In this document: positions 21,701 through 47,842 of the stretch, piece by piece
How positions within the stretch are numbered: position 1 is the first letter of the stretch
Layout of the letters: each line of letters opens with the position of its first letter
From: Candidatus Saccharimonadales bacterium
GTDB taxonomy: Bacteria; Patescibacteriota; Saccharimonadia; Saccharimonadales; UBA4665
Reading direction: 5' to 3'
NCBI GenBank assembly: GCA_035479375.1
Contig: DATIIT010000009.1
Span: 5,073-69,072 of the forward strand
Length of the DNA stretch: 64,000 bases
Notes under the pieces: generated by a model
Told to the model about the DNA's origin: nothing
The model's database searches: none
What the model saw: only the letters and a program-made list of their open reading frames with translations
Position numbers and translations under genes: made by a program

Positions 21701-24700
21701 CCACCAGTGCTGGCGCCTTGACGGTGCAGGCCAACGGCGCTAACTCCTTGAGCTTGACCGCCGGCGCGGCCTCCACCTGGGACATTGGCAACAACTTGCT
21801 GTCGCTGCAGACCACGAACAACGGCGCGGTACAGACCGGCACCGGGCTGTGGACGCAGGGCGGAAACATTACGTTTAACGGCACCACGGCACGCACGATT
21901 ACCGGGCCAAGCACCGGCGGCCTGACGATTACGGTGGACAGCGGGCCGTTGGCGCTGACGACGACCACCTCTGGTGGGTTGTCGCTCAACTCTGTGGGTG
22001 CGCTGAGCCTCACCGGCGCTGCGGCCTCTACCTGGAGCACGGGCTCGGCAGCTTTAACGTTGCAGTCGGGCAACTTTAACGTGGCCAGCGGTGGGCGCGT
22101 GACATTAGCTGGTGGCCAGGCGCCGGACATCAGCACCGCAGTCACCAGCGGTGTGGCCGCAGCGCTCACCCTGCAGCCGGGCACGGCCACCGGCGCCAAC
22201 AACGGTGCTACGGTGACGCTGCAAGGCGGCACGGCCGGCGGCACTGGGGTGAAGGGGCTTATCCAGCTCAACGGCAGTACGTACTTTACCACGGGTAGCT
22301 ACTCCAGTGGTACTACAGCCACGATTACCCAAAGCTTGGTGGACTCCAACTCGGCCATTACTGCCACGGCCACGGCGGCCAGCCTGGTGTTTACGGTGCC
22401 GTCACCTACCATTACCACGGCCGGGCGCGTCTTATATATAACAAACGTTGGCGGCACGAACGCGTTCACCTTGGCCGGTGCCGGCACCAGCTTTACGCTG
22501 AACACTGGCAGCACGGCCACGCTCATGTGGAGTGGCTCGGCCTGGACAAGCGCCGGCGTGGACGCCAGCACGCTGCAGAACGTGTACAACAACTCCACGG
22601 GCAACACCACGCCAGAGATTTTGCTGGACACCACGCGCCGCGGTATCGACATCCAGGACGCCAACACCACCCTGGGTTCTACCGAGGCCTTGTTGGCGGT
22701 GCGGGCCAGCGCCACGGCCAGCACCCTGGGCACTGGTTTGTTCGTGGTCAACGCCAGCGGCAAGGTGGGTATTAACACCGGCAGTACCTCGACCACGCCA
22801 ACGATTAGCTACGATGTGTCGCTTGGCCAGATCGCCGGTGCCACCACGGCGCGCACGATTGGCGTGGAAGCGCAGGGCACCACCAACATCGGCGGCAACG
22901 GCTTGTCGCTTACGGCCGGCACCGGCAACGGCACCGCCGCCGGCGGCCAGCTGACCTTACAGGGCGGCGGTACTGGTACTGGCGCGGCTGCCGTGGGCGG
23001 CGCGGTGCTGATTCAGGGCGGTACCTCCAGCGGTGCTTCAGGCGCCAGCAACGGTGGTACGGTGACACTACAAGGCGGCACGGCCGGCACTGGCGGCACA
23101 AAGGGCCTCATCCAGCTCAACGGCGCGACGTACTTTACCACCGGTAGCTACTCCAGCGGGTCGACCTCTAGCATTACCCAGAGCTTAATTGACTCTAACT
23201 CGGCCATTTTGGCCACGGCGACCGCAACGAGCCTGACGTTTACGGTGCCGTCGCCGACGGTCACTACCGCATCGGGCCGCATCATATATATAAGCAACGT
23301 GGGCACGAACCCGTTTACCCTAGCTGGCGCCGGCACCAGCTTTACCTTGAATGCGGGGAGCACGGCGACCTTGTTGTGGAACGGCTCGGCCTGGACAAGC
23401 GCCGGCGTGGACGCCAGCACCTTGCAAAATGTCTACAACAACTCGGCGGCGTCGCCGACCCCAGAAATTTTGTTGGACAGCACCCGGCACGGGTTGGACA
23501 TCCAGGACGCCAACACCACCTTGGGCTCCACCGAGGCTCTATTAGCCGTGCGGGCAAGTGCCACCGCCACCAGCCTGGGCAACGGTTTGTTCGTGGTCAA
23601 CGCCAGCGGCAAGGTCGGCATTAACCTAAGCAGCACTTCCACCACACCCACGATCAGCAACGACCTATCCTTTGGCGCCGGCGCCAACCGCACGATTGGC
23701 GTGGAAGCGCAGTCCGCCAGTAACACCGCCGGCAACAACATCACCCTGGCGGGCGGCACGGCCAACGGCACCGGCGCCGGCGGCAACACGGTCTTGCAGG
23801 GCGGCGCGGCCTCGGCCACGGCTGGTTCTAACGGCGGCGGCATTACGCTTACGGCAGCGGCCGGCTCGGTAACCGGTACGGGCGGCGCCGGTGGCGCAGT
23901 GACGATCCAGGGCGGCAGCGCCGGCGGCAGCGGTAACAACAACGGCGGCGGCGTTACGGTGGGCTTGGGCGCTGCGACTGGCACCGGTACGCAGGGCACC
24001 TTCCAGGTCCAAAATGCCGTGGGCGCCAGCTTGCTCACGGTTGACCCCAGCAACACGGCGGCCAGCCTCAACCTTATCAGCAATGGTGGCGCCGAGAGCG
24101 GCAGCCCGCCCACCGGCTTTGCCGCGCAGGGCTCGGGCAGCTCGGTAGCGACAGGCACCGGCACGGATGCGGCGAGCGGCTCGCAGTCCGCCAAGGTAAC
24201 ATTTGGCACGACTGCCAACGCCGGTACTAAGATTAGCTTTGCCACAGCGCCTACGGCTAGCACCACAGTGAACTACATCGTGTCCTTCAGCGCCAAGCAG
24301 GTGTCTGGTACAGCGGTGGCGCCGGGAAACACGGCTTTGCAGGTGCTGTACTCGCCAGACAACGGTACCACGCTGACGGCCACCTGCAGCAACTACAGCT
24401 CGTCGGCCTCGCTGTCCACCACGGCCTGGACGAAGGTGAGCTGTACGTTCATCCCGGGTTCCACTACGGTTACCACTGCGCTCCTGATTATCCGCCAAGC
24501 CGACACGCCGGGCGTCAGCCGCGTTATCGACATCGACAACGTCAGTGTGGTGCAGCAGAACAGCTCGGGTGCCACCAACGTGGGCGACTTGAAGGTGGGC
24601 GGCGCGGTGAGCCAAGGCTTGACGCTGTTCACGCTGGACACCTACTCGGCTACGCCGTTTAGCGGCAGCAACGCCTCGCTGGCAGGCTCGATGTACTTTG

Positions 24701-25314
24701 ACACCAGCCAGGGCAAGATCCAGTGCTACGACGGCAGCAACTGGGGCGCTTGCGGCGCGGCGCCAAACACCATTGTGACGCTGACGCCGGAGTATGCCGG
24801 GGCGGTGTTGGACTCGGCCGGCGTGTCTACCAACATCGGTACGATGACCTCGGACTTCTGCGCCAACAGTGCGGCGCTGACGGTAGGCACGCTGTGCTCC
24901 AGCGGCGACGCCCGCAACTTCTACAAGTGGACCTCGCCGCAAGGCTCGCTGCAGTCCTACAGCATTTTTGTAACGTATAAGCTGCCGGCGACATTCAAGT
25001 CGTTTGTGGCGAGCAGCACCAGCCTGACCGGCTTGGTAGACAACACCACTAATGCCAGCGTGAAGTACGCGATATTCAAGAGCACAGGAAGCGCAGTTAC
25101 TAGCTGTAGCGCTACGGCCACGGTCGTGGGCGCGGGTACTGGCTCGGCTAACACCTGGACCACGGGCGTGGCCGGCACGCTCAGCGGCAGCACCGACCCG
25201 TCCACCTGCGGCTTTGTGGCTGGCAACAACATCATCTTCCAGATAACGGTCCAGGCAGACAACAACGCCAGCTCCTACCCGGAAAACCTTAACTTCCAGT
25301 ACTCCAACCAATAA
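18754..25314 (+). CDS. Giant secreted fibre/adhesin-like protein A (2186 aa) with CBM-like and C-terminal globular domains
   Basis: Signal peptide ending ..RASA|A; N-terminal INFQARL...LTAVPYAF domain; T/G/S/N-rich beta-repeats; 283-aa tandem duplication; NLISNGGAE...IDIDNVSV CBM4/9-like domain (~24064-24555). Confidence 0.75.
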   Translation: MRHTALKLKLVASKPLLALCLLTPVLLFGVATQYLAGGRASAATAGTINFQARLMTNTGAIAADGDYNVEFKLYDTFSTGGTAQGVCTGNCKWVETRTSGNKIHVANGYISANLGSVTSFPTTINWDQDIWLTMNIGGTGTPSWDGEMSPRLKLTAVPYAFRAGQLASLAGSNTGVLQFAASLGQATTITLPDPGATTATVCYQASTSCGFATGTSGSYIQNALTQQTANFNIIGNNTANPTAQIQGIASGTKPVLQLLGGSTPGSGEDILNLQDSTATNTFFKVDNAGLATLNKGLTVSGGQVSINDTSNFNTKINTGTSTGTVQIGNSSNGGTLTLQSSTTIAIATTNFNVSTTGLVTLAGGLTPDVTTAANGSGSANAITLTPGSSGGASSNGAALNLNGGAATGTTSVTGGAVTIQAGSATGGSGTRNGGSVNIDAGTGASAAGNINIGQSSVGSTINLGSTTQSTGTQTLNVGNNNTSGSTTNVTIGAGLGATAGTTTLQSKTTLQLTSGTTTSINTAASTTASTGAITIKSGDASSGTNLSAGTVTLDTGTHTGAGTGTLNLGNANATSIQLGNTGSTTAITGTLNINDNANFNTKINTGTSTGTISIGNSASGTLALQGGAATSLVVNNGAGNTTTLNFTAPSGTNTITFPAASGTVQLAPATGGYIQQVPATTLINTIAPTAASVVALTIKGTTGTQAHVLEIFNSAGTPTLQDYFDGNGLLNVSQIIQPTANNTIDLGTSSAAFHTGYFGTSVVTQSVVSSGTNAINLDTGGVAAINIGVNGISVNGINIGNTTSNPNVAFNGSGTFGTTTGNVSLNGATQVAANKNFSLAAGTGTIAQTFSSAAAGNAQTFSFANTNTGAGVAIQGVNITPTNTSTATSGTNQLNLINFAAGGALGGTDNTNGINFASATGYTNFIKTPTFVLNSAGAISGVNTYNGLTLTSAADGFTVAGGTTSRTLTVTGADITIGSTIKPTSAGALTVQANGANSLSLTAGAASTWDIGNNLLSLQTTNNGAVQTGTGLWTQGGNITFNGTTARTITGPSTGGLTITVDSGPLALTTTTSGGLSLNSVGALSLTGAAASTWSTGSAALTLQSGNFNVASGGRVTLAGGQAPDISTAVTSGVAAALTLQPGTATGANNGATVTLQGGTAGGTGVKGLIQLNGSTYFTTGSYSSGTTATITQSLVDSNSAITATATAASLVFTVPSPTITTAGRVLYITNVGGTNAFTLAGAGTSFTLNTGSTATLMWSGSAWTSAGVDASTLQNVYNNSTGNTTPEILLDTTRRGIDIQDANTTLGSTEALLAVRASATASTLGTGLFVVNASGKVGINTGSTSTTPTISYDVSLGQIAGATTARTIGVEAQGTTNIGGNGLSLTAGTGNGTAAGGQLTLQGGGTGTGAAAVGGAVLIQGGTSSGASGASNGGTVTLQGGTAGTGGTKGLIQLNGATYFTTGSYSSGSTSSITQSLIDSNSAILATATATSLTFTVPSPTVTTASGRIIYISNVGTNPFTLAGAGTSFTLNAGSTATLLWNGSAWTSAGVDASTLQNVYNNSAASPTPEILLDSTRHGLDIQDANTTLGSTEALLAVRASATATSLGNGLFVVNASGKVGINLSSTSTTPTISNDLSFGAGANRTIGVEAQSASNTAGNNITLAGGTANGTGAGGNTVLQGGAASATAGSNGGGITLTAAAGSVTGTGGAGGAVTIQGGSAGGSGNNNGGGVTVGLGAATGTGTQGTFQVQNAVGASLLTVDPSNTAASLNLISNGGAESGSPPTGFAAQGSGSSVATGTGTDAASGSQSAKVTFGTTANAGTKISFATAPTASTTVNYIVSFSAKQVSGTAVAPGNTALQVLYSPDNGTTLTATCSNYSSSASLSTTAWTKVSCTFIPGSTTVTTALLIIRQADTPGVSRVIDIDNVSVVQQNSSGATNVGDLKVGGAVSQGLTLFTLDTYSATPFSGSNASLAGSMYFDTSQGKIQCYDGSNWGACGAAPNTIVTLTPEYAGAVLDSAGVSTNIGTMTSDFCANSAALTVGTLCSSGDARNFYKWTSPQGSLQSYSIFVTYKLPATFKSFVASSTSLTGLVDNTTNASVKYAIFKSTGSAVTSCSATATVVGAGTGSANTWTTGVAGTLSGSTDPSTCGFVAGNNIIFQITVQADNNASSYPENLNFQYSNQ
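22201..23680 (+). repeat. Intragenic tandem duplication, period 849 bp (283 aa)
   Basis: NGATVTLQGGTAGG..KGLIQLNG.TYFTTGSYSSG...GVDASTLQNVYNN...KVGIN begins at 22201 and again at 23050; differences include many synonymous changes. Confidence 0.9.
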
Positions 25315-25392
25315 CCTGGCCGCCTTGGCAGCTTAGGTGCTACAATATAACCATTAGAGGAACTGCCGAAAGAGGTTGACGAGCCCACAGGC

Positions 25393-30021: not shown

Positions 30022-30037
30022 GGTATACTGGATAGAT

Positions 30038-30958: not shown

Positions 30959-31060
30959 CTAGCCATATACGGCTAGTTTCGGGCGAAGATGAATAATTGC
31001 TCGCTTTCCGCTTGCGCTTACCGGTATAATCGAAGCAGGAAGCAGTAAGGCAGGTTGGGC

Positions 31061-32006: not shown

Positions 32007-35000
32007 GTGCAAGACCAAAACCAACCCACCACCACACCGAGGACTATTGGGGTCGACAGCGGCCCGCTAGTCTCTACTGGATACGACAGCCGGCCAGACC
32101 CGTTTGCTGATACTGAAGCATTGTCTGCGCAATCTTTGGACAGCACTTTTGTGCACGCCGCGCCGCGCCTTACCGTGGCCTCCCGTTTGCTCAAGCGGGT
32201 GGATGTTATTTTGCTGGCGCTGTTAGTTTTGGGCGCGCTAGGACTGGTGTTAAGCACCTTTTTCCATAAGCACCAGCAGCCGGTAAGCAACAGCGTAAGC
32301 ACACAGTTTGGCAACGTGGCCTTGCCGCTCAGCCAGTTTGTTGGCACGGAGGATGGCATCAAGCTGGACGCCGGGAGTGTGGTGGTAAACGGTGCGCTCA
32401 AGCTGAACCAGGGCGTGGTCATAACGCCGTCGGTGCAGCCCAATGCGCCAGTCTCTGGCCAGTTGTATTTTGACCGCAACACCAACCAGTTGGCGTATTT
32501 TAACGGGACGGCCTTTGTGCCGCTAGGAGCCAGTACCCAGGCGGTGCAAACCATTGGCGGCTTGAGCGGGCAGGTTACCTTAGGCGGTGGCTTGAGTGTG
32601 GTGGGCAACCAGCTCGTCTCATCCACGGCCGGTGTTACAGGGGTAGTGGCAGGCACGAATATTAGCGTAACGAACAATAACGGCGTGTATACCGTGAGCA
32701 ACACCGGTGCCGGCACTGGCACAGTGACGAGTGGCGGCGGCACGGCCGGTACACTGCCACTGTTTACCGGTGTGCAAAATGTAGAGAACTCCATTGTGGC
32801 GCAGTCCGGCGGTGCCATAACAGTGGGCGGCAACCTGAATGTCTCTGGGAGCTTGGCGCTGGGCACTGCCTTGGGCGTGGCCAGCGGCGGCACGGGCGCA
32901 GCCACCTTGGCAGCCAACGGTGTGCTGTTGGGTAATGGCGGCGGTGCAGTGTCCTCCCTGGTGGCCGGTGGCGCTGGGCTTTGCTTGGTATCCTCGGGAG
33001 GGGCGCCCACCTGGGCATCATGCTCGGGCGGCGGCGTTACCAGCCTGAACGGCTTGGCTGGCGCACTCACCGTGGCCAACGCAAGCGGCGTGGGCAGCAC
33101 AGTTACAATTAACGACGCAGGCATCGGCACCAAAGGCATCGCCAGTTTTGACGGCACGAACTTTAGCGTTGTTGGCGGGGCGGTGAACACCGTGCAGAAC
33201 ATCAGCACTGGCTCAAGCCCGACATTTGTGGCGGTGAACACAAATAGTATTACGCCGAGCGCCGCGCTCACCGTTGGCGCCAGCGGCCAGACCCTGACGT
33301 TGCAAGGCGGCGCCAGCACCGTGTTCAAAGCCACGGCCGGCGGCAACACTACCACTGTGGACTTCACGAGCCCTACGGCCAACACCACGCTGCACTTCCC
33401 GGCGTCACCGGCCGGGCCATACACTATTTGTACGACGGTGGGGAACTGCGCCGGCTCTGGCGGCGGCGTCACTGGCTCGGGCACCAACAACCAAATCGTC
33501 AAATTTACGTCCAATGGCAGTACGGTTGGTGACTCCAGCTTGTCTGATAGCGGCGGCGCGGTGACTACCAGCGGCGACCTCGTGATCCAGGGCGGCGATG
33601 TGACCGTGGGCGTGTCCAACAGCCAGACTGGGACGGTGAAGTTTGCGCACAGCGGCTCGGCGTTTATCGGTTCACTGGTGCAAGGTGCGCTGAGCGCCGG
33701 CCAGACATACACGCTGCCAAACGCCACTGGCACCATCTGTTTGGACAGCGGCAACTGTTTGGGCGGTGGGGGCGGCGGCGCCAACACGGCGCTGTCTAAT
33801 CTGACGAGTGTGGCCATTAACACCTCGCTGTTGCCCGGCGTCGCCGGCAGCATTAACCTGGGGTCGGGCGGCTTGCCGTTTGGCGACGTCTTCCTGGCTG
33901 GCGCATCGGGCACCCCTGGCACGAATAATTTCCGGCTCACCGGCGCCTCCACGTCTGGTACGCGGGTTATTACGCTGCCCGACGCCGCTGGCACGGTGTG
34001 TTTGCAGTCGGCGGCGGCCTGCGGGTTTGCGGCCAACAGCGGCAACGGCAACTACATCCAGAACCAAAACAGCGCAGACCAAGCGGCGGATTTCCGCATT
34101 AGCGGCACTGGACGGGCAAATACCTCGGTGCTAACGCCGCTGCTGGACACGGCAACGGGCGTTGCCCTGGCACTCGGCACAAATAACGCTACGGCCATTA
34201 ACCTCAACCAAAGCACGGCAATTGCTACGGGCAAGAGCCTAACAGTGGGGCAGGACGTGACGCTGCAGGCGGCAAACTCCAGCATTAGCAACGCACAGAC
34301 GACGACGCACGGCGAGTCGTTTGGCTCTGGCGCCACCACCGCTAATGATGCGGTTGCCTTTGGGTTTAGCGCGGCCGCGCTGGCTAACAGCGTTGCTATC
34401 GGTTCTGGCGCGAGTACCGCCGCCACGTCAGGGATTGCCATTGGTAACGGCGCTACAGCAGCTAACCAGTTTGGCATTGCCTTGGGCCGCGGCGCCACCA
34501 CCACGGCGGCTAACCAGCTGGTGGTCGGCAGCGGCACGGGCGCTATCAGCCAGGTGTTTATCGGCAACGGCTTTAGCAATGCTGCACCCAGCGATGTAAC
34601 AATCCAAGGCACCGGCGGCAGCGGCACCGACGTGGCCGGCGCCAGCCTGAACCTTTCCAGCGGCGTGGGCACCGGCTTAGGCGCTGGCGGCAACATTAAC
34701 TTCAAAGTGGCGACCCCGGCTGGCGGCACCGGCAGCTCGGCCAACGTGGCGCAAACGGTGGCCACTATTAGCGGCACCAACGGCGCTGCGGTCTTCAAGA
34801 ACTTTGTGAATGGTACGGCCGGGTTTGACGTGCAGACGCAAGGTGGCGCATCAATTTTGACCGTTAACAGCAGTACGCCGGGCGTCACCATAAACGGCAC
34901 CGCCACTATCCAGGGCGGCAGCGGCGCTGGCGCGGTCAGCGTCCAGGCGGCGGCGAGCGCCACTATTAGCATTGGCACAGCTAACGCCAACACCATTACC

Positions 35001-36446
35001 GTGGGCAATGCGGCCAGCACCGCGGCCATCACCATTGGCCAGTCCACGGCCAGCAACACTATTAATATTGGCAACGCCACCACGGCCGCGGGCAACATCC
35101 AGACGATCAACATTGGCACGTCGGCCACCAGCACGGGCAAGGCGGTGATTACTATTGGCAACACCAACGATGGCTCATCGCTGGCGCTGCAGGCCGGCAC
35201 CGGCAATGTGACGCTGTCTACCAACTCGGCCACCTCCAGCGTGACGGTCAAGAGCAACACCAACAGCACCGCTGCCTTCCAGATTTTGGACTCCGGCAAT
35301 AGTCCATACCTCACGGCCAACACCACGTCTACCAACCCAGGCATTTACATCTCTGGTACGGCCAGCGGCGGCGGTGGTGGGCGGCTGTTCTTTGGCAACG
35401 TGGGCGACCCTAACACCTTTGTGGGCGAGGACGCCGACGTGGTCACCCCAGACAACGACCGACTGGCGCTCTTTGGCCGCGCCGGCCTGCGCTTCTACAC
35501 CAACACCGCGCCGGGCAGCCTCACGGGCACCATTACCGCCAACGGCAGGTACATCTTCCAGTCGTTAAACGACAGCCAGGGAGGGTTTGAGTACCAGACC
35601 CAGGGTGGCGACGACCTGCTCAACATTTCCACGGCCGCGGTCACCGTCACCATTGGCAAGGGCACTACCAACGACAGCACCGGCGTGCTGCTGGTGCTCG
35701 ACTCCAAAAACACCGCCGGCGACCCCACCGGCATAACTGGCGGCATGTATTACAACAATAGCAGCGAGACCTTCCGCTGCTATACTGGCGCGGCCTGGGC
35801 GGACTGCATGGGTACGCCTAAGCCTAACGCCCGCCGCTGGACGTACATTACCTATCCGGGCTCCGGCACGAGCTTTAACGCCAACGGCGACATTACTGGC
35901 GGCAACATCGCCACATCTGTCCCGGCCACCACGTCGGAGCCAGCCGTGCTCGATTACGCTACCGCCGGCACCACCAACAGCGCCACCAGCCTGGAGGGCA
36001 ACCCCAACTACAATTCTTCGGCCAACCCCACCTACCAAACGTATGCCTCGATTGCCGGCACCACCAACACCCGCATGTGGCTGGGCTTCACCGACCAGTC
36101 CGCGGCTACCATGGCTGCCAGCGCCAACCCGGCTGGCAACTACGCCGCCTTCCGCTACGACACCGGCGCCGGCGACACGGCCATCAAGTGCGTCACTAAA
36201 GACGGCACCACGCAAAACATCACCAACACCTTTACGGCGCCCACTACGGCTGGCCACAAGTACGAGATCGACATTATCCAAGGCACGGAGGTCATCTTTA
36301 AGCTCGACGGGGCAGAGGTTTGCACCCAGTTCACCAACTCGCCAGCGGCCAACACTATGCTGCGCTACGTCAACACCATGACCACGCTCACCAATGCCAT
36401 CAACGACATCCGCGTGGGCTGGGTGTACATAGAGAGCGACAAATAA
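32007..36446 (+). CDS. Giant N-terminally membrane-anchored fibre protein B (1479 aa) with YadA-head-like repeats and lectin-like tip
   Basis: GTG start; TM after LLKRVD; Cys-pair modules (TLPNATGTICLDSGNC); SVAIG/GIAIG/GIALG repeats at ~34311-34570; MYYN..FRCY..W.DC neck then beta-sandwich tip; paralog of 40442-47842. Confidence 0.75.
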   Translation: MQDQNQPTTTPRTIGVDSGPLVSTGYDSRPDPFADTEALSAQSLDSTFVHAAPRLTVASRLLKRVDVILLALLVLGALGLVLSTFFHKHQQPVSNSVSTQFGNVALPLSQFVGTEDGIKLDAGSVVVNGALKLNQGVVITPSVQPNAPVSGQLYFDRNTNQLAYFNGTAFVPLGASTQAVQTIGGLSGQVTLGGGLSVVGNQLVSSTAGVTGVVAGTNISVTNNNGVYTVSNTGAGTGTVTSGGGTAGTLPLFTGVQNVENSIVAQSGGAITVGGNLNVSGSLALGTALGVASGGTGAATLAANGVLLGNGGGAVSSLVAGGAGLCLVSSGGAPTWASCSGGGVTSLNGLAGALTVANASGVGSTVTINDAGIGTKGIASFDGTNFSVVGGAVNTVQNISTGSSPTFVAVNTNSITPSAALTVGASGQTLTLQGGASTVFKATAGGNTTTVDFTSPTANTTLHFPASPAGPYTICTTVGNCAGSGGGVTGSGTNNQIVKFTSNGSTVGDSSLSDSGGAVTTSGDLVIQGGDVTVGVSNSQTGTVKFAHSGSAFIGSLVQGALSAGQTYTLPNATGTICLDSGNCLGGGGGGANTALSNLTSVAINTSLLPGVAGSINLGSGGLPFGDVFLAGASGTPGTNNFRLTGASTSGTRVITLPDAAGTVCLQSAAACGFAANSGNGNYIQNQNSADQAADFRISGTGRANTSVLTPLLDTATGVALALGTNNATAINLNQSTAIATGKSLTVGQDVTLQAANSSISNAQTTTHGESFGSGATTANDAVAFGFSAAALANSVAIGSGASTAATSGIAIGNGATAANQFGIALGRGATTTAANQLVVGSGTGAISQVFIGNGFSNAAPSDVTIQGTGGSGTDVAGASLNLSSGVGTGLGAGGNINFKVATPAGGTGSSANVAQTVATISGTNGAAVFKNFVNGTAGFDVQTQGGASILTVNSSTPGVTINGTATIQGGSGAGAVSVQAAASATISIGTANANTITVGNAASTAAITIGQSTASNTINIGNATTAAGNIQTINIGTSATSTGKAVITIGNTNDGSSLALQAGTGNVTLSTNSATSSVTVKSNTNSTAAFQILDSGNSPYLTANTTSTNPGIYISGTASGGGGGRLFFGNVGDPNTFVGEDADVVTPDNDRLALFGRAGLRFYTNTAPGSLTGTITANGRYIFQSLNDSQGGFEYQTQGGDDLLNISTAAVTVTIGKGTTNDSTGVLLVLDSKNTAGDPTGITGGMYYNNSSETFRCYTGAAWADCMGTPKPNARRWTYITYPGSGTSFNANGDITGGNIATSVPATTSEPAVLDYATAGTTNSATSLEGNPNYNSSANPTYQTYASIAGTTNTRMWLGFTDQSAATMAASANPAGNYAAFRYDTGAGDTAIKCVTKDGTTQNITNTFTAPTTAGHKYEIDIIQGTEVIFKLDGAEVCTQFTNSPAANTMLRYVNTMTTLTNAINDIRVGWVYIESDK

Positions 36447-38608: not shown

Positions 38609-38652
38609 ATCCCCTAGGCAGATGTCTGGGGGTGCAGCTCGAAGCCGAGCGC

Positions 38653-39474: not shown

Positions 39475-40320
39475 ATGCACATGTCGCTTCCACGGCAAAG
39501 ACGTTCTCCAAAAGCGAAGTACATCAGTTTGGGTGTGGCGGCGTTCACACTCATTATTTGTGTGTCTTCGTTGAGCGCCCAAGGGGTCTCTTCTATTGCG
39601 CAGGGTTTCCGGACCAGTGACGCCGGGGTTGTCTCTGGCGCGCTGGTGAGCCTGAAAGAAGGCGTGGCAAACACGGTTGAGCTGGGTACGCCGGACAATT
39701 CCCAAAACCTTATCGGCGTTGCCGGCAGCAAGTCACTCATTGAGCTGTCGAGCGGCACAGGCAGCGTACAGGTGGTCACCAACGGGACTACGCAGGCGTT
39801 GGTGTCGGACATCAACGGCGATGTGAAGACTGGCGACCGCGTCACGGCCTCGCCAATTGCCGGCGTGGGCATGAAAGCCACGAGCAGCGGTATCGTTGTG
39901 GGCAGCGCCCAGGCTAATTTGAGTAGTGCAACCACTAGCACCCAAACGGTCACGAATAAAAGAGGCAAACAGGTGACGGTAAAGATCGGCACTATCCCGG
40001 TGCAGGTAGACAAGGTGTTCTACCAGGCGCCCACGGACACGGTGTCATTTTTGCCCCCGGTGCTGTCTGATTTTGCCAACAGCGTTGCCGGGCACCAAGT
40101 TTCCCCGGTACGCGTTGTGGCGGCGGCGCTGCTTATTTCGTTGCTGTTTGTGGCTGTAACAATTTTGCTGTATTCGTCGGTGCGGTCCAGCATTATTTCG
40201 ATTGGCCGCAACCCGTTAAGTGAGCAGGCTGTGCATAAGAGCCTCTTGGAAGTAGGACTGACCGTGGTGGGCGTGCTGGTGTTTACCGTTATTGTGGTGT
40301 ATTTGATCCTCACCACGTAG
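39475..40320 (+). CDS. Secreted, C-terminally anchored 'GRNP' membrane protein (cassette 2)
   Basis: Paralog of 31061-31888: SSIAQGF, VVSGALVSL, LVSDINGDVKTGDRVTASPIAGVGMKA, SIISIGRNPL. Confidence 0.75.
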   Translation: MHMSLPRQRRSPKAKYISLGVAAFTLIICVSSLSAQGVSSIAQGFRTSDAGVVSGALVSLKEGVANTVELGTPDNSQNLIGVAGSKSLIELSSGTGSVQVVTNGTTQALVSDINGDVKTGDRVTASPIAGVGMKATSSGIVVGSAQANLSSATTSTQTVTNKRGKQVTVKIGTIPVQVDKVFYQAPTDTVSFLPPVLSDFANSVAGHQVSPVRVVAAALLISLLFVAVTILLYSSVRSSIISIGRNPLSEQAVHKSLLEVGLTVVGVLVFTVIVVYLILTT

Positions 40321-40441
40321 CGTAAAGTTTTCCACAGAAATACGCCTATCTTGTAGTAAAAAGTACATATACCTACAAGCATAAGCAGCGTAAGATATAT
40401 GCAGGGAATACTCTCGAAAGGGAGTCACAAAAAAACAAATC

Positions 40442-43400
40442 GTGGACCAAAACCAAAATACAAACACGAATGTTGGGCCTATTAGTGGAGGGACGGATCA
40501 GCCGGGGACCCTAGACTATGGCGTTGCTGCTGGCGTGGCCGACCCCGAGGCGCTCTCTTTGGAGCCAGTCTCTGCCACGTTGCCCGATGAAGCAGCGCGC
40601 GCCGCAAAGCGCACCAACGTTGCTGTCCGCCTGTTAAAGCGGGCTGACGTGCTGCTTGTCCTGCTGTTAATTGCGGGCATGGTGGGTCTTATAGTGGCCA
40701 ACGTGCGCCACAAGGCGCACAACAAGGGCGTGGCCAGTATCACAGACCAGTACAACACCGTTACCCTGCCATTGGCTGGGTATGTGGCAAACGCCCAAGG
40801 CGTGAACTTTGGCAGCAGCAGCGTGGTCATCAACGGCGCGCTGAAGGTTAACGACGGATTGGTGGTCACACCTTCTGTGCAGCCCAATGCGCCCACGGCC
40901 GGCCAGCTGTACTTCGACCAAAACACCAACCAGATGGCGTACTACAACGGCAAGTCGTTTGTGCCGCTCGTTTCGCAAGGGGCAGTGGTGCAGAGTGTGG
41001 GCGGCGCCAGTGGGCAGCTGACCCTTGGTAACGGTTTGAGTGTCACGGGCAACCAGCTCAACGTGGCCTTCCCGTCGCAGGCGGCCAGCGTGACGTCTTT
41101 GGGTGGGCAGAGCGGGGCCGTTTCCCTAGGCAACGGCCTGACGCTGGTGGGTGGCGCACTGCAAAATAGCGGCGCCTTGAGCATCACGGCCGGCAACAAC
41201 ATCTCGGTCACCAATGATGGCAAGGGCAATTACACCATTAACAACACTGGTGCTGGCACTGGCACGGTAACGAGCCCGGGTGGCACGTCCGGGCAGTTTG
41301 CGCTGTTTGACGGCGCGCAGGACATCGTTGGCTCGCTGTTGAGCCAGAGCGGCACCACTATCACCATCACCGGCGACCTCAACGTGGTTACCGGCGGCCT
41401 CAGCTTGGGCAATGCGCTTACCGTGCCCAACGGCGGCACTGGCGCTACGTCGCTGGCCTCGAACGGGGTAGTAGTGAGTAACGGCACCGCGGCATTTACC
41501 GCTGTAACCGGCGGGAGCCCTGGGCTTTGTTTGCTGTCTACGGCGGGGGCACCGGCCTTTGGCGCCTGCCCGGGCAACGCCGGCGTGACCACGCTCAACG
41601 GCTTGAGCGGTGTGTTGGCCATTGCGAACGCCAGCGGCGCCGGCAGCACTATAACAATCGACGATGCCACCACGGCCGGCGGCAAGGGCATTGCCAGCTT
41701 CAACAACACGAACTTTACCGCGGCTGGCGGTGTGGTGAACACCATCCAGGACATTAGCACCACCGCGGCCACGACGTTTGGGCGGCTGACGCTGAGCTCA
41801 AACCAAGCAACCAACCCGATGCTGCTGGTAAACAACACCAACGGCGGCGCCTCTGGAAACCTGCTCGATTTGCAGCTTGGCGGAGTGAGTAAATTTAGTG
41901 TTCAACCCGGCGGAAACATATCTGCAACAGGGACGATTAACGGCCAGACAATCTCTAACGTGGCTAACTTTACAGGCAGCCTAGGGGTTTCCGGCAACAC
42001 CACACTCACCGGCACATTGGCGGTGAACGGGGGCAGTATTGGCTCTAGCGGCGCGTTAAGCATCAGCCCCACGGGCACGCTTACCGCAGGCACCACCGGC
42101 CAAACGCTGACGCTGCAGGGCAATGGCAGCACCACATTGGCCGCTACTAGTGGCGGCTTTACCACGACGCTGAGCTTCCAGGCGCCAACGGCCAATGTGA
42201 CGTACCGTCTGCCCACAGCCGCCGCCAACACCTACGACATCTGTACCACGGCTGGCAACTGTACGGGTACCGGCGGCGGGGTGACGACCCCTGGCGGCAC
42301 AAACAACAAGCTATCGAAGTTTACTGGCGCGCAAACGCTGGGCGACTCCAGCATTTCCGACACCGGCGTGCTGGTGACCACGTCGGCCAACATTGCCATC
42401 CAGGGCGGCACGGCAACGGTAGGTGTGGCCAACACGCAAACCGGCTCGCTGACGCTGGCCTACGGCTCGGCCAACTTTAGCGGTACGGTTACCCAGGGCG
42501 TACTCACCAACAACCGCACCTATACCTTGCCAGACGCCAGCGGCACGGTGTGTTTGAGCAGCGGCAACTGTTTGGGTGGGGGCAGTGGCGGCGCCAACAC
42601 GGCGCTGTCTAACCTGACGAGCGTGGCTATTAACACTTCGCTCTTGCCGGGCAGCACGAGCATCGACCTCGGTTCGGCGGCAGCGCCGTTCCGCAACCTA
42701 TATATTGCGGGCAGCTCGGCGTCGCCAGGGACAAATAACTTCCAGATCACTGGTTCGGCCACCCAGGCACGCACGATTACTATCCCCGACGCCACGGGCA
42801 CAATTTGTTTGAACAACAGCACCAACTGTGGCTTCTTAACTGGCACGGGCACGGCGTTTGTACAAAACGGCAACACGCTGGGAGCGGCGGCGTTTATGGG
42901 CACGAGTGACAACTTTGCCCTCAATCTGGTCACCAACAATATAGCCCGCCTAACGCTGGCTAACACCGGCGGTGCGACGTTTAGCGGCAACGTGGCCATT
43001 AACGGCAGCACGCTGAGCTCGGCCGCAGCCCTTAACATTACGCCGAGCGGCACGCTTACAGTGGGCGCCTCGGCCCAAACCCTGACCCTGCAAGGCGATG
43101 GCAGCACCACCCTAAGCGCCACCGGCGGCGGCTTTACCACTACCGTGGGCTTCACCGGCTCGCCAACTGGCGCGGTGACGTACAACTTCGACCGCAGCGC
43201 TGCGCCCAACACATACACCATTTGTACGACAGCCGGCAACTGTGTGGGTGGCGGCGGCGGGGTGACAACGTCCGGCGGCAGCACCAACAAGGTGGCCAAA
43301 TTCAGCGGCAGCCAGACCTTGGCCGACTCCAGCCTCACAGACAACGGCACGACGGTGACCACCACGGGCAACCTGGTGGTGCAGGGCGGCAGCGCCACAG

Positions 43401-46400
43401 TTGGTGTGGCCAACAGCCAGACTGGCATTTTGTCGCTGGCCTACGGCTCGGCCAACTTTAGCGGCAGCCTGACGCAGGGCACGTTAACCGGCAACCAGAC
43501 CTACACGCTGCCAGACGCTACCGGAACCATCTGTTTGAGCAGCGGCAACTGTTTGGGTGGCGGTGGAGGCGGGGGCGCCAACGCGGCGCTGTCCAACTTG
43601 TCTAGCGTGGCTATTAACACCTCGCTGCTGCCGGGTACCACCACGATTGACCTGGGCTCGTCCAGTGCGCCGTTCCGCAACTTATATATTGCGGGCAGCT
43701 CGGGCACGCCTGGCACCAACAACTTCCAGATTACCGGCACGGCCACCAGCCCGCGCACGATCACGCTCCCCGACGCCACCGGCACGGTGTGTCTGAACAG
43801 CTCTGCGTCTTGTGGCTTTGCCACGGGCAGCGGCTCGGCCTTTGTGCAGAGCGGCAACAGCTTTGGCGCCACCGGCGTGCTTGGCACCAACGACAACAAC
43901 GGGCTTAATATCCGCACCAATGGCAACACGGCCTTGGGGCTGAGCGCGGCTGGCGACGCCACGTTTGCTGGCAATGTGACGATCCAGGGCACCACGCTGA
44001 GCTCCAGTGGCGCGCTGAGCATTACGCCCGGCTCCAGCCTGACGGTGGGCGCTACTACCCAGACGCTGACGCTGCAGGGCAACGCCAGTACCACGCTAAC
44101 GGCCACCGGCGGCGGCTTTACCACCACCGTGGGCTTCACCGGCTCGCCCACGGCATCGGTGGCCTACAACTTCGACCGCACGGCCACTGGCGGCCCGTAC
44201 GCCATCTGTACTACGGCCGGCAACTGTACCGGCACCGGCGGCGGCGTGACCACGCTGGGCGGGTCAACCGGGACGATTGCGGTCTTCACTGGTTCGCAGG
44301 CCATTGGCAACTCACTGCTGAGCCAGAGCGGCGGCGTGGTGACGGTGGCCGGCGGGCTCAACCTCACCAGCGGCAACACGTACCAGATTAACAACACGCA
44401 GATCTCGTCGGCTAACTTAAGCAACGACAGCAACCTGGCCAAACTGAGCGCCTCGCAAACCTTTAGCGGCGCCACGGTGACCTTTAAGAACGCCAGTGTG
44501 GACACCACCAACGCCTTTAATATCCAGAACGCTGGCGGCAGCCGTTTATTTACGGCCGACACCACTAACGGCCAGATTATCCTGGGTACCTCCAGTACGC
44601 TGGACGGCAAACTGGTGTTCAACAACGTGAGTAACACGAACACCGCCACGATTGTGCCCGGTACGCCCACGGGCCCACGCACGATCACGCTGCCAGACTC
44701 TACCGGCACCATCTGTTTGGACAGCGGCAACTGTGCTGGTGCGGGCTCCACGCTGCAGACGGCGTACAACTTCTCGGTGGGCGGCACCACGCCAAAGATT
44801 AAGCTCAACAGTACGCTGAACGGCGTGGACATCCAGGACGCGGACACCACGATTGGCGCCAACCTGTTTAACGTGCGCGCCAGCAATGGCGCAGGCCTGG
44901 GCAGTGTGCTGTTTGGCGTAGGCAACACCGGCCAGGCAACACTGCAGAATAGCGCCAACTCCACCACCGCGCTGCGTTTGCTGACGCAGGGCGGCACCAC
45001 GGTGCTCACCGGCGACACCACCAACGGCAAGGTCATTTTAGGCCAGGGCGGCACGTTGGACGGCAAACTGGTATTTAGCAACGCCACCAACGCTAACCTG
45101 GTGACGGTGAGCAGCGCGGCAGTCACCAACGCGCGCACGGTAACACTGCCGGATTCAAGCGGCACGGTGTGTTTGGACAGCGGCAACTGTTCTGGCTCCG
45201 GCAGCACCAACACGCTGCAGGCGGCCTATAACGCTGGTAACACTATTTCTACGAACGGCAACGACATCGCCTTTACGGTTAACAGCAGCCAGAACTTTAC
45301 GGTGACCACGGCGGCTACCGCTACGGGCGGGTCGGTGTTCTCGTTGGCGGATGGCAGCAACGCCACGCCGCCCGGCCAGCTCATTTTGGTGCGCAACAAC
45401 GACATCAACCAGCCGCTGGGCAAGGGCATTGCGGTGACCTCGGCCGGCGGCGGCATTAGTACGGCGCTGGATGCCTCGGGCAGCAATATTACTAACGCGT
45501 TGGCGATTGGCGCCAACGCCATCTCCGGCACCAACTTTAGCGTGAACGGCAGTGGCGCGGTGACCGCTGTGGGCGTGAACTCGGGCAGCGGCCTGTTGCA
45601 GGGCGCTGGCGGCCTGACTGCCACCGGCGCGGTGAGCCTCAACACCACCGGCACCGGCAATACCAGCATTGGGAACGGCACGGGCACGCTGGCGCTGACA
45701 TCTGCCGCGCTTAACGTGACGACTTTGGGGGCGGTAAGCGGCGTGACCACGCTGGCGACATCGGGGATTATTACCGCCGGATCACTGGGCGCGGCCAACA
45801 CCACAACGCTGTTGTGCCGCAATAGCACCAACCAGATCGCCACTTGCGCTGGCACGGGTGCTGGCGTGGCCTTTATCCAGGGCGGCAACAGCTTTGGCGT
45901 GGCTGGCGACCTTGGCACTAACGACGGTTTTGAGCTCAACCTGCGCACCAACAACGCCACGCGCATCACCTTGAGCACCACCGGCGACTTCACCTGGGCG
46001 GCCAGCAGCGCTGGCAACTTCGACCAGTCGAGCAGCACCGGGACGTTTAAGACCGGCAGCGGCAACGTGTCGCTCAACGGTAGTACGACGGTGGCGGCTA
46101 CCAAGACGTTAACGGTCACCAGCGGGCTCACCAGCCTTACGGGCAACACTAGCGGCGACGCGCTTAACGTTTCTAACTCGAGCTCTACGGGCAACATCGC
46201 AGTCTTTAGCGACGGCGCTACAGCAGTGGCCACGTGGGCGAACGGCGGCTCGGTGCTGTTCCAGAACCAAACCGACTCGGCCACGGCCTTTCGCATCCAA
46301 GACACGGGCAGCGGCACGCTGCTGACTGCCAACACCGCCACGCGCACCAGCGGCGTGGCCGGCAACACGGTTAAGATTGGCGACTCCACCGGCACAGACA

Positions 46401-47842
46401 CGGCCACCACTTTCTTGCAGCTGGACGGCACCACGGCCGACCCTACCACCAACCTGGCTTCGCTCAACGGCGGCTTGTTCTACAACTCCACCACCAACAA
46501 GGTGAGCTTGATAGAGAACGGCCAAGTGAAGATTATTTGTAACACCACGGACCTGGGCTGCGGCACCGGCACGGTGACGCTGCAGAACGCCTACACCAAC
46601 TCGGTGGGCAGCACCACGCCTGAAATTAAGGTGGACTCTACCCGCGGCGGCGTAGACATCCAGGACGCGGACACTACCATTGGTGCCAACCTGCTCACGG
46701 TGCGTGGCTCCAATGGGAGCGGCCTGGGCGCGGTGCTGTTTGGGGTGGGAAGCGACGGCACCATCGACATTGGCAGCGCAACCGGGACGGCCACGGTGAC
46801 GCTAGGCAAGTCTACAGACAGCCAGACGATCAACATCGGCAATGCCACTACGGCTACCGGCAAGACGCTGACGGTCAACATGGCCACTTCGGCTACGGGC
46901 ACGGGCAAGGCCATCGTGACTATTGGCGGCACCAACGACGCCAGCTCGCTGACGCTGCAGTCCGGCACGGGCAACACGTCGCTGCTGAGCACCGGCAACA
47001 TTACCATCGGCACCTCAGACACTACCGGCACACTGCTGGTGCTGGACACTAAGACAGGCAGCGGTGACCCCACGGGTGTTGCCGGCGGTATGTATTACAA
47101 CTCCAACCTGGGCGCTTTCCGCTGTTTTGAGGGTGACCCGGCAGGCACCGGTTACTGGCGCAACTGTATGCAAACCGCCCACACCTCGTGGCACTACCAA
47201 AACGAGTTGACCACCAAAAACTCCGACGGTGTGATCTCAACGCTAGCAGCCGGCACCGGCGCAATATGTGACGGCAGCAGTATCGCAGCTACCGCCGGGC
47301 ATCCGGGAATTATTGAGCAAGAGACAGGAACGGCAACCAACGGCTACTGCTTGATCGGCTCCAACGACGCCAACGGCCAGAGCATTTTGCTGGGCAATAA
47401 CGACACCTGGCGCTATGAGTCCGCGGTCCAATATCCCACGCTGTCCAACGGCACGGACCGCTATGTGCACCGCATCGGCTTTGATGACTCGTCGGTTGGC
47501 AACCTTGACCCCACAGACGGCTGTATCTTTAAGTACAGCGACAACGTCAACTCAGGTAAATTCCAAGGCGCCTGCTTTAACAACACGGCCACCACAACCT
47601 GCGACACCGGCTTAACTGTGGCGGCCGCCACCTGGTACCGGCTGACCATTGTGGTAAATGCCGCCGGCAATTCCGTGGACTTTGAAGTGAACGGCGTCAG
47701 CAAGTGTCAGGTAACCAGTAATATTCCTACATCACGTGTCACCACATTTATGAGTAACTTTGTGAAAACTCTGGGGACCACCACCAGGTCGGCGTATCTT
47801 GACTATATCGAGCTGGATGCCCAGTTCGGCGGTACTCGCTAG
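40442..47842 (+). CDS. Giant N-terminally membrane-anchored fibre protein C (2466 aa) with lectin-like tip
   Basis: GTG start; TM after LLKRAD; same N-terminal domain as protein B (TPSVQPNAP..GQLYFD.NTNQ); at least 11 Cys-pair modules; neck and ConA-like tip. Confidence 0.75.
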   Translation: MDQNQNTNTNVGPISGGTDQPGTLDYGVAAGVADPEALSLEPVSATLPDEAARAAKRTNVAVRLLKRADVLLVLLLIAGMVGLIVANVRHKAHNKGVASITDQYNTVTLPLAGYVANAQGVNFGSSSVVINGALKVNDGLVVTPSVQPNAPTAGQLYFDQNTNQMAYYNGKSFVPLVSQGAVVQSVGGASGQLTLGNGLSVTGNQLNVAFPSQAASVTSLGGQSGAVSLGNGLTLVGGALQNSGALSITAGNNISVTNDGKGNYTINNTGAGTGTVTSPGGTSGQFALFDGAQDIVGSLLSQSGTTITITGDLNVVTGGLSLGNALTVPNGGTGATSLASNGVVVSNGTAAFTAVTGGSPGLCLLSTAGAPAFGACPGNAGVTTLNGLSGVLAIANASGAGSTITIDDATTAGGKGIASFNNTNFTAAGGVVNTIQDISTTAATTFGRLTLSSNQATNPMLLVNNTNGGASGNLLDLQLGGVSKFSVQPGGNISATGTINGQTISNVANFTGSLGVSGNTTLTGTLAVNGGSIGSSGALSISPTGTLTAGTTGQTLTLQGNGSTTLAATSGGFTTTLSFQAPTANVTYRLPTAAANTYDICTTAGNCTGTGGGVTTPGGTNNKLSKFTGAQTLGDSSISDTGVLVTTSANIAIQGGTATVGVANTQTGSLTLAYGSANFSGTVTQGVLTNNRTYTLPDASGTVCLSSGNCLGGGSGGANTALSNLTSVAINTSLLPGSTSIDLGSAAAPFRNLYIAGSSASPGTNNFQITGSATQARTITIPDATGTICLNNSTNCGFLTGTGTAFVQNGNTLGAAAFMGTSDNFALNLVTNNIARLTLANTGGATFSGNVAINGSTLSSAAALNITPSGTLTVGASAQTLTLQGDGSTTLSATGGGFTTTVGFTGSPTGAVTYNFDRSAAPNTYTICTTAGNCVGGGGGVTTSGGSTNKVAKFSGSQTLADSSLTDNGTTVTTTGNLVVQGGSATVGVANSQTGILSLAYGSANFSGSLTQGTLTGNQTYTLPDATGTICLSSGNCLGGGGGGGANAALSNLSSVAINTSLLPGTTTIDLGSSSAPFRNLYIAGSSGTPGTNNFQITGTATSPRTITLPDATGTVCLNSSASCGFATGSGSAFVQSGNSFGATGVLGTNDNNGLNIRTNGNTALGLSAAGDATFAGNVTIQGTTLSSSGALSITPGSSLTVGATTQTLTLQGNASTTLTATGGGFTTTVGFTGSPTASVAYNFDRTATGGPYAICTTAGNCTGTGGGVTTLGGSTGTIAVFTGSQAIGNSLLSQSGGVVTVAGGLNLTSGNTYQINNTQISSANLSNDSNLAKLSASQTFSGATVTFKNASVDTTNAFNIQNAGGSRLFTADTTNGQIILGTSSTLDGKLVFNNVSNTNTATIVPGTPTGPRTITLPDSTGTICLDSGNCAGAGSTLQTAYNFSVGGTTPKIKLNSTLNGVDIQDADTTIGANLFNVRASNGAGLGSVLFGVGNTGQATLQNSANSTTALRLLTQGGTTVLTGDTTNGKVILGQGGTLDGKLVFSNATNANLVTVSSAAVTNARTVTLPDSSGTVCLDSGNCSGSGSTNTLQAAYNAGNTISTNGNDIAFTVNSSQNFTVTTAATATGGSVFSLADGSNATPPGQLILVRNNDINQPLGKGIAVTSAGGGISTALDASGSNITNALAIGANAISGTNFSVNGSGAVTAVGVNSGSGLLQGAGGLTATGAVSLNTTGTGNTSIGNGTGTLALTSAALNVTTLGAVSGVTTLATSGIITAGSLGAANTTTLLCRNSTNQIATCAGTGAGVAFIQGGNSFGVAGDLGTNDGFELNLRTNNATRITLSTTGDFTWAASSAGNFDQSSSTGTFKTGSGNVSLNGSTTVAATKTLTVTSGLTSLTGNTSGDALNVSNSSSTGNIAVFSDGATAVATWANGGSVLFQNQTDSATAFRIQDTGSGTLLTANTATRTSGVAGNTVKIGDSTGTDTATTFLQLDGTTADPTTNLASLNGGLFYNSTTNKVSLIENGQVKIICNTTDLGCGTGTVTLQNAYTNSVGSTTPEIKVDSTRGGVDIQDADTTIGANLLTVRGSNGSGLGAVLFGVGSDGTIDIGSATGTATVTLGKSTDSQTINIGNATTATGKTLTVNMATSATGTGKAIVTIGGTNDASSLTLQSGTGNTSLLSTGNITIGTSDTTGTLLVLDTKTGSGDPTGVAGGMYYNSNLGAFRCFEGDPAGTGYWRNCMQTAHTSWHYQNELTTKNSDGVISTLAAGTGAICDGSSIAATAGHPGIIEQETGTATNGYCLIGSNDANGQSILLGNNDTWRYESAVQYPTLSNGTDRYVHRIGFDDSSVGNLDPTDGCIFKYSDNVNSGKFQGACFNNTATTTCDTGLTVAAATWYRLTIVVNAAGNSVDFEVNGVSKCQVTSNIPTSRVTTFMSNFVKTLGTTTRSAYLDYIELDAQFGGTR
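42101..44260 (+). repeat. Intragenic tandem repeat, ~2.3 copies of a 325-328 aa unit
   Basis: QTLTLQG.GSTTL.AT.GGFTT begins at 42101, 43076 and 44060; protein B has one copy starting at 33288. Confidence 0.88.

Follow-up and report, generated by a model that had tools for sequence, protein, structure and literature searches.

Long fibre proteins that end in different domains behind one and the same short module raise the question of whether those ends are inherited together with the rest of the fibre or are exchanged between genomes. Three such proteins, fibres A, B and C, are encoded in a 64,000-nucleotide stretch of DNA (hereafter the window; contig DATIIT010000009.1 of assembly GCA_035479375.1, positions 5,073 to 69,072) from a Candidatus Saccharimonadales bacterium. 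The initial annotation, made from the letters of the window, took their common module, the neck, to be a recombination junction and adaptor for swappable receptor-binding tips, as in phage fibres. Here, we describe the module and its spread, the folds of the tips, the discordant histories of tips and upstream parts, breakpoints at the edges of the neck and the lack of an in-genome diversifier. A mechanism in which surface fibres have their tips exchanged between genomes at the neck joint appears probable.

The neck module and the domains behind it

The necks of the three fibres and the tips that follow them are located as follows.

24619-24753 (+), amino acids 1956-2000: neck of fibre A, divergent subtype, LTLFTLDTYSATPFSGSNASLAGSMYFDTSQGKIQCYDGSNWGAC, followed by 186 amino acids to the stop
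35682-35807 (+), amino acids 1226-1267: neck of fibre B, canonical, GVLLVLDSKNTAGDPTGITGGMYYNNSSETFRCYTGAAWADC, followed by 212 amino acids
47027-47167 (+), amino acids 2196-2242: neck of fibre C, canonical, GTLLVLDTKTGSGDPTGVAGGMYYNSNLGAFRCFEGDPAGTGYWRNC, followed by 224 amino acids
24754..25311 (+): tip A, 186 amino acids, a beta-sandwich (AlphaFold2, Foldseek)
35808..36443 (+): tip B, 212 amino acids, a concanavalin-A (ConA)-like jelly roll (AlphaFold2, Foldseek, hhalign)
47168..47839 (+): tip C, 224 amino acids, SO2946-like/ConA-like (Pfam)

The neck is 45-50 residues long and contains two conserved cysteines. In fibre A, it follows the pattern ...LFTLDTY..PFSG.NA.LAGSMYFDT.QGKIQCYDG..WGAC, and in fibre C it carries a 5-residue insertion preceding the tryptophan. 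Eleven alignment positions are identical in all three necks, both cysteines, the tryptophan and the G-x-M-Y core among them, and the glycine, methionine, tyrosine, tryptophan and both cysteines are invariant in 22 necks from several genomes. Overall identity is 26% between the necks of A and B and 54% between those of B and C. A profile built from the three necks finds only four sites in the 1.19-Mb genome (per-genome E values of 4e-32, 5e-31, 3e-24 and 5.5e-20), and a strict regular-expression scan of the genome recovers A, B and C only, with the fourth carrier, protein D, requiring the profile search. The translations and these profile scores bear out the initial annotation, which had placed a neck in all three fibres and described different C-terminal domains of ~190-225 amino acids behind it.

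Contig C20:51430-53295 (-), outside the window: protein D, the fourth neck carrier, a 621-amino-acid open frame (~540 amino acids from its likely start)

Protein D opens with a signal peptide and an N-terminal domain resembling that of A, continues through a short stalk into a canonical neck, and ends in a 171-amino-acid tip, whose class differs from every tip class of the window.

The neck matches no family in Pfam, NCBIfam or PHROGs. It is present in 26 of the 41 genomes searched (its own included); in the same genus, 20 of 22 other genomes contain it, with 1-9 copies each, and in a sample drawn evenly across the phylum it occurs in 25 of 301 genomes. A 22-sequence neck profile run against 1.84 billion representative proteins matches 3,407 of them at E<=1e-3 and 1,599 at E<=1e-10, mostly from Saccharimonadales. 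The related neck loci come from metagenome-assembled genomes (MAGs) labelled Candidatus Saccharimonadales or Saccharibacteria. Two neck-bearing loci (L018 and L021) lie on MAGs labelled Pseudomonadales and Burkholderiaceae, reflecting either mis-binned Saccharibacteria contigs or transfer outside the phylum.

Many neck proteins hold 2-18 necks, commonly spaced by ~143 amino acids, and in frames that end within the fetched stretch the last neck usually lies ~130-290 amino acids from the C-terminus. The pre-tip site is the commonest neck position. An internal neck in homologue P0005 is followed by a globular domain and then by more stalk, and in P0041 and P0044 the next stalk segment comes directly after the internal neck. 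Since necks also lie within proteins and in tandem arrays, the module is a general fibre joint and not only a pre-tip element. AlphaFold2 models place three short strands over G-M-Y-Y-N / F-R-C-Y / W-x-x-C: neck A forms three short strands with a predicted local distance difference test (pLDDT) score of 74-83, and neck B forms a three-stranded meander (pLDDT 58-75) with a low-confidence linker next to it. The two invariant cysteines presumably form a disulphide.

Discordant histories of tips and upstream parts

In fibre A, the neck is preceded by a carbohydrate-binding module (CBM).

24067..24558 (+): CBM4_9 carbohydrate-binding module of fibre A (Pfam PF02018, CBM_4_9), directly before the neck

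The Pfam match reaches 34 bits (cut-off 25.9; E 4.4e-8; profile positions 2-130 of 136), in agreement with the CBM4/9-like module and distinct tip that the initial annotation had read in A, which shares with B and C the neck alone and not the tip. The CBM4_9-neck-tip block is C-terminal and co-linear in 76 of 78 BLAST-aligned A homologues, and upstream of it these proteins contain Kelch, parallel beta-helix or other parts. One of them, P0190 (locus L087), is the positional orthologue of A, with the shared gene order isoleucyl-tRNA synthetase (IleRS) - ribosomal protein L21 - fibre - Kelch. The two proteins are ~97% identical over ~290 amino acids, from a Gly-rich stretch through the CBM and neck, and 43-48% identical in the tip (two alignments); farther upstream, they are unalignable. 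At the DNA level, identity is 76-90% to about nucleotide 24810, 50 nucleotides past the neck, and then ~50%, a sharp homology breakpoint at ~24775-24815. DNA identity to the orthologue is 80.5% for the CBM-neck block and 79.6% for ileS. Because the block is no more similar than ileS, it has been inherited vertically under strong purifying selection, and the tip is the part that was replaced; recent transfer of the CBM-neck block is ruled out by the same match.

The histories of CBM and tip disagree across the whole A class. The tip of A shares 75-79% identity with tips that sit behind CBMs of only 44-48% identity to the A CBM, and the homologues P0192 and P0206 are 35% identical in the CBM, 89% in the neck and 94% in the tip. 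In approximately unbiased (AU) tests, the tip data reject both a seven-member CBM clade (p 2e-44) and a sister pair of A and P0190 (p 2e-21), and the CBM data reject the tip clade of five (p 1.7e-80) and the tip clade containing A (p 2.1e-66). Nearest neighbours by CBM and by tip agree in 11 of 76 sequences, and CBM identity correlates with tip identity at a Spearman coefficient of 0.36. The initial annotation had made its reading depend on neck and tip not being co-inherited, and the AU tests (p from 2e-21 to 2e-80) together with the nearest neighbours indicate that upstream part and tip are indeed inherited separately.

The canonical class and the loci related to D show the same discordance. 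Pairwise comparison of 276 terminal cassettes gives 1,115 pairs that resemble each other upstream of the neck but not in the tip, and 3,086 with the reverse pattern. Non-homologous tips follow upstream parts with 79-91% identity, and tips with 77-82% identity are found behind upstream parts that share no homology. The last 160 upstream residues of D are 79-81% identical to those of loci L071, L070, L031 and L082, whose tips are unrelated to one another and to the D tip. Conversely, the D tip is 77-82% identical to the tips of L057, L053 and L062, whose upstream parts are unrelated to D. The eight D-type loci tested all match the D locus in their flanking genes, upstream and downstream. Given these shared flanks, a single orthologous locus has borne two stalk types and no fewer than four unrelated tip classes across sister species of one genus.

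Where the similarity breaks can be read from individual pairs. The break between D and L071 falls at the C-terminal edge of the neck, and that between L057 and L061 falls at the N-terminal edge. Neck-core identity is 0.68-0.79 in pairs that share a tip, 0.55-0.69 in pairs that share a stalk and 0.36-0.44 in the background; in these alignments, the neck core is on average somewhat more closely tied to the tip than to the stalk. Class-specific neck features (EVDG...CGQN with D-type tips and a SGETSAPAVT insert with class 4) agree with a neck core that tracks the tip. Breakpoints at either neck edge probably reflect which chimeras fold rather than a hot spot in the DNA.

The initial annotation had suggested collecting neck homologues and tabulating the domains downstream of them, and doing so yields recurrent tip classes that are discordant with the upstream parts. 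Among 93 neck/tip pairs from relatives, the recurrent classes are the A type, the B/C type (29) and the D type (5), alongside two classes of 4 and many singletons. Homologue P0023, of 1159 amino acids, ends in a B-type tip, but its upstream part differs markedly and a C...C stretch replaces the canonical neck; this arrangement indicates that a tip can exist without a neck.

Fibres B and C of the window are paralogous over their N-termini, repeated stalk modules, pre-neck region, neck and tip. Their identity is 39% in the pre-neck region, 54-65% in the neck and ~23-28% in the tip, and they look like diverged paralogues, produced by duplication and divergence rather than by a swap. Along C, GC content at third codon positions (GC3) falls from ~0.79-0.80 in the stalk to 0.70 across the neck and 0.69 across the tip (0.65-0.74 from neck to stop, 47027-47839, +); there is no such step at the neck in A or B. 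The drop stays inside the variation among other genes (mean 0.75, sd 0.08), and the low GC3 of the C neck and tip, suggestive only, would be consistent with a later arrival.

Tip folds, fibre architecture and gene context

The tips were characterized by profile searches and structure prediction. Tip C matches the Pfam family PF22237 (SO2946-like_C) at 56.3 bits (cut-off 27; E 5e-15; positions 2-163 of 163) and, weakly, Laminin_G_3 (E 0.003); the neck and tip C together match no PDB sequence at E<=1. Tip B has no Pfam match. Its AlphaFold2 model, built from a 20-sequence alignment, has a pLDDT of 85 overall and >90 over the domain, and forms a two-sheet jelly roll that superposes on solved members of the concanavalin-A-like lectin/glucanase fold. 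With the neck included in the query, Foldseek matches 393 PDB chains at E<=1e-3, headed by glycoside hydrolase family 16 (GH16) glucanases, polysaccharide lyase family 7 (PL7) lyases, the L-type lectin Emp47p and SO2946 (2a5z). The E values of these matches are ~4e-7 to 4e-6 and their template modelling (TM) scores (TMq) are 0.42-0.52, with E 3e-6 and TMq 0.52 for SO2946. Matches in BFVD, which holds predicted viral structures, are better than those in the PDB (E 2.5e-12, TMq 0.62-0.69). The top listed BFVD matches of the B neck and tip are mostly uncultured Caudovirales proteins, and some matches are annotated as SO2946-like C-terminal, ConA-like, Mtd N-terminal or phage tail repeat.

Tips B and C do not match significantly by BLASTP (E 0.086), but profile-profile comparison with hhalign identifies them as homologous (97.5%, E 5e-12, 170 columns). 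The initial annotation had called the two distantly related and ConA/L-lectin-like, and both parts of that description stand. Within the SO2946-like (PF22237; PDB 2a5z)/ConA-like superfamily, tip C is a member by its Pfam score and tip B is a remote homologue, whereas tip A belongs to a different beta-sandwich class. The AlphaFold2 model of tip A (pLDDT 82 overall, >90 in the core) retrieves CBM61, CBM6, CBM11, CBM22, CBM4 and the C-terminal domain of the phage K2-2 tailspike. As these matches are weak (E 1.6e-4 to 3e-3, TM 0.3-0.45), they identify the fold class only, a CBM-type sandwich. At the level of fold class, then, Pfam, AlphaFold2 and Foldseek all place the tips among carbohydrate-binding-type folds, as the initial annotation had expected. 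SO2946 itself comes from structural genomics and has no assigned function, so a ligand cannot be read from the name of the family.

The fibre genes and the genes adjoining them are arranged in the window as follows.

18754..25314 (+): fibre A gene, 2186 amino acids (open reading frame list, translation)
25393-30021 (+): Kelch-repeat protein, 1542 amino acids, adjoining fibre A (Pfam)
31055-31888 (+): small membrane-protein gene directly upstream of fibre B
32007..36446 (+): fibre B gene, 1479 amino acids (open reading frame list, translation)
39475-40320 (+): small membrane-protein gene directly upstream of fibre C, a paralogue of the one before B
40442..47842 (+): fibre C gene, 2466 amino acids (open reading frame list, translation)

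Fibre A consists of a signal peptide (18754-18891), an N-terminal domain (18892-19245), a stalk, the CBM4_9 module, the neck and the tip. Its stalk is long and Gly/Ser/Thr-rich and contains an internal tandem duplication of ~849 nucleotides at 22192-23806 (+), the copies of which are 78-92% identical. Fibre B begins with an N-terminal cytoplasmic stretch and a transmembrane (TM) helix (32199-32264), followed by stalk, neck and tip. Fibre C likewise has a cytoplasmic stretch and a TM helix (40643-40705), then a stalk of repeated ~327-amino-acid modules, the neck and the tip; the 981/984-nucleotide module repeats of this stalk are common to B (spacing 8813 nucleotides). Given the signal peptide of A and the N-terminal TM helices of B and C, the C-terminus is the far end in all three. 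Searches of the full-length fibres against Pfam and NCBIfam gave nothing useful, and the domains emerged only from scans of sub-sequences. SVAIG-like repeats in B at 34200-34700 (+) resemble YadA head repeats; YadA_head scores 16.2 bits there, below the Pfam cut-off of 25, and the resemblance is a weak hint of a possible trimeric fibre.

The source genome (1.19 Mb, 59% GC) is 96% complete, and the window lies on a chromosomal contig. The cellular genes around the fibres include class II ribonucleotide reductase, IleRS (ileS) and L21 (rplU), and further neighbours are ParA, ParB, signal peptidase S26 and a LytR-CpsA-Psr protein. A Kelch gene beside the fibre is also present at the relative locus L087. 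Elsewhere, Kelch propellers are fused into fibres with B-type tips (P0016, P0018, P0022) and into fibres with A-type cassettes (P0209, P0223, P0240), which marks the Kelch unit as another shuffled module. The two small membrane-protein genes have no Pfam match; their products are 58% identical over 262 amino acids and share a signal-like start and C-terminal TM helices. Since paralogous genes precede B and C, the two fibres sit in duplicated two-gene units.

Relation to known fibres and alternative explanations

Protein-fragment shuffling in phage host-interaction proteins is reportedly the subject of one study. A scan of viral contigs found a Cys-less relative of the neck core, of the form ...DP..DNDGN.L.TGAMYFN......Y.G..W, at 47 loci, and the phage proteins that carry it match tail-fibre PHROGs (phrog_38058) at 1e-27 to 1e-36. 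The analogy with phage fibres drawn by the initial annotation is strengthened in this respect, since a form of the neck core without cysteines occurs in tail fibres of uncultured phages and SO2946-like/ConA-like phage proteins are the best structural matches of tip B. Both kinds of fibre also combine a conserved stalk with exchangeable tips. Unlike phage tail fibres, however, the window fibres are chromosomal, membrane- or secretion-targeted and far longer, and neither the neck and tip of B, the neck and tip of C, nor the CBM, neck and tip of A match any PHROG family at E<=0.01. The phage motif, for its part, lacks the two cysteines and the LLVLD lead-in. Cys-less neck-like motifs that resemble the phage version also occur in the window, just outside the TM helix in B (32457-32525, +; GQLYFDRNTNQLAYFNGTAFVPL) and C (40901-40969, +; GQLYFDQNTNQMAYYNGKSFVPL) and a third time in the C stalk (46469-46540, +; GGLFYNSTTNKVSLIENGQVKIIC); all are below the profile threshold in their own genome.

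The nearest described system in a cellular organism, by analogy, would be the mosaic adhesive trimer (MAT) family of Bdellovibrio bacteriovorus (Caulton et al. 2024, PMC10769870). There, the C-terminal tips have been exchanged among fibres whose N-terminal parts are 75% identical, and one of the family binds glycans of its prey (PMC10769870). Compared by description and not by sequence, both are phage-like fibres of a bacterium that attaches to other bacteria, with large paralogue families, conserved fibre regions and diverse beta-rich C-terminal tips; a conserved fibre region with exchanged, diverse C-terminal tips is likewise what the window-type fibres display. The window fibres differ in coming from Patescibacteria, another phylum, in being anchored by a signal peptide or an N-terminal TM helix, and in having a specific conserved two-cysteine neck to mark the joint. 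MAT fibres are trimers with an intertwined beta-prism/beta-helix fold, and for the window fibres the weak YadA_head score of B is the single pointer to a trimer. Peptidase_S74, the C-terminal autoproteolytic chaperone of the S74 MAT subfamily, has no match in A, B or C at E<=0.1, and the window fibres correspond at most to the non-S74 MAT subgroup. YadA-type trimeric autotransporter adhesins are also long, repetitive and fibrous, but the anchor of the window fibres is N-terminal and Pfam scans of them contain no C-terminal barrel anchor; with neither that anchor nor a YadA_head score above the cut-off, B is not a member. Our literature searches turned up no description of the neck or of tip exchange in Saccharibacteria. 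For host recognition by Patescibacteria, the candidate phyla radiation (CPR), only type IV pili and a few unnamed adhesins have been described so far (PMC10633639, PMC11623550, PMC9894109), and epibiotic growth of Saccharibacteria needs several adhesins (PMC10633639).

Several lines of evidence suggest how such fibres may work. A, B, C and D would be cell-surface fibres, with A and D exported by a signal peptide and B and C held by a TM helix, and would presumably be displayed and oligomerize at the surface. A Gly/Ser/Thr-rich stalk of repeated modules would project the C-terminus away from the cell and end in the neck, a small three-stranded beta-meander predicted to act as a self-contained joint. 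Behind it, a beta-sandwich tip of the lectin/carbohydrate-binding type may bind glycans of the host envelope. Since this joint is common to fibres with unrelated stalks and tips, recombinants at or beside the neck stay foldable. Over evolution, tips, usually with the neck core, have been replaced at orthologous loci by DNA from other genomes, giving each species its own set of tips. Saccharibacteria are naturally competent (PMC10633639), which makes natural transformation a plausible route for the uptake of donor DNA.

Some observations weigh against this mechanism. The cassette pairs counted above are not independent of one another, and duplication and divergence account for B and C. Internal necks sometimes lead straight into stalk, and the neck is not specific to tips; the monomer models predict it with no more than moderate confidence (pLDDT 58-83). 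There is no sign of a DNA-level hot spot at the neck. Necks within the genome are ~50% identical in DNA, and their longest exact match spans 15 nucleotides, so the neck cannot now serve homologous recombination between paralogues, and homologous recombination or gene conversion between the genome's own necks is ruled out. The CBM-neck block shows no extra DNA-level conservation, so breakpoints may cluster at the neck because chimeras that fold were selected, and not because the site is prone to recombination. A lectin function of the tips is a prediction from fold, and in the PDB tip B is matched best by enzymes (GH16, PL7). The proposal that the neck is a junction for swappable tips is thus upheld by breakpoints at its edges and by discordant histories, and has to be narrowed in that the neck is also internal and in tandem and that B and C do not represent a swap.

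The evidence can also be set against readings that dispense with exchange between genomes. In one, the neck is kept by a structural or partner-binding role, and the vertically inherited tips diverge very fast by point mutation under diversifying selection; the very strong purifying selection on the A CBM-neck block (97% protein and 80% DNA identity) and the graded divergence of B and C speak for it. We nevertheless consider this improbable, because tip and CBM trees reject each other, the A tip is nearer to tips on distant CBMs than to that of its 97% identical orthologue, and syntenic loci carry tips of different lengths with no detectable homology; nor are paralogous tip subfamilies seen in every genome, there being one tip per locus. 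Diversity-generating retroelements (DGRs) are common in CPR bacteria and target lectin-fold tips, and 'Major tropism determinant N-terminal domain' appears among the names of the tip B fold matches. Still, the generation of tip diversity within the cell, by a DGR, an invertible shufflon or silent-cassette gene conversion, is very unlikely: the 96%-complete genome has no match to reverse transcriptase (RVT_1), which three of the control genomes do match, and a genome repeat search found no near-identical or template-like repeats involving tips, and hence no template/variable repeat pair of the kind that defines DGR targets. There are no orphan or silent neck/tip cassettes either, as all four genomic necks lie in full-length genes. 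DGR, shufflon and silent cassettes are ruled out on these grounds, and these results together with the short runs of neck DNA identity point to exchange between genomes and not to a running switch.

Two further alternatives concern what the fibres are. That the tips are enzymes, GH16/PL7 jelly-roll glycanases or lyases cutting host envelope polysaccharide, is unlikely, even though phage fibre tips are often depolymerases and tip B has GH16 beta-glucanases, mucin O-glycanases and PL7 alginate lyases at the top of its PDB matches. The TM-scores of these matches are modest (0.42-0.52), and the lectin Emp47p and SO2946 match tip B equally well. In the 20-sequence alignment, only one glutamate of the EIDIIQ strand of B is nearly invariant, and the aspartate and second acid of the GH16-type E-x-D-x-x-E are not kept; with the EIDIIQ string not conserved in homologues, a GH16-type catalytic motif in tip B is ruled out. 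Tip C, moreover, falls in SO2946-like_C, which is not a glycoside hydrolase family. It is scarcely credible that the fibres are a prophage or tailocin remnant, that is, true phage tail fibres and not cellular adhesins. Phage tail fibres do carry the Cys-less neck relative, and phage proteins are the best fold matches of the B neck and tip model; against this, ileS, rplU, parA, parB, signal peptidase and LytR-CpsA-Psr genes surround them with no phage structural genes in between, the fibres have a signal peptide or N-terminal TM anchor, their necks and tips match no PHROG family, and the A locus is syntenic in another genome. A prophage origin of the fibre genes is ruled out on gene context.

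Exchange of tips between genomes at the neck joint has consequences for the family and for its hosts. The neck is a candidate for a new Pfam family and a searchable marker of exchangeable end domains on giant fibres across Saccharimonadales, whose fibre ends have independent evolutionary histories and lectin-type folds. With it, the mosaic-fibre principle of phages and Bdellovibrio is extended to a third, very different bacterial parasite of bacteria. Exchangeable fibre tips are candidate determinants of host recognition by CPR/Patescibacteria epibionts, and the question of host specificity is narrowed to a testable list of short, expressible domains, three of them in the window. It is possible, and we suggest it only tentatively, that neck-plus-tip cassettes are host-range determinants of Saccharibacteria, forming a phage-style receptor-binding system whose tips are traded by natural transformation. 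If so, the set of tips in a lineage would predict which Actinobacteria it can colonise.

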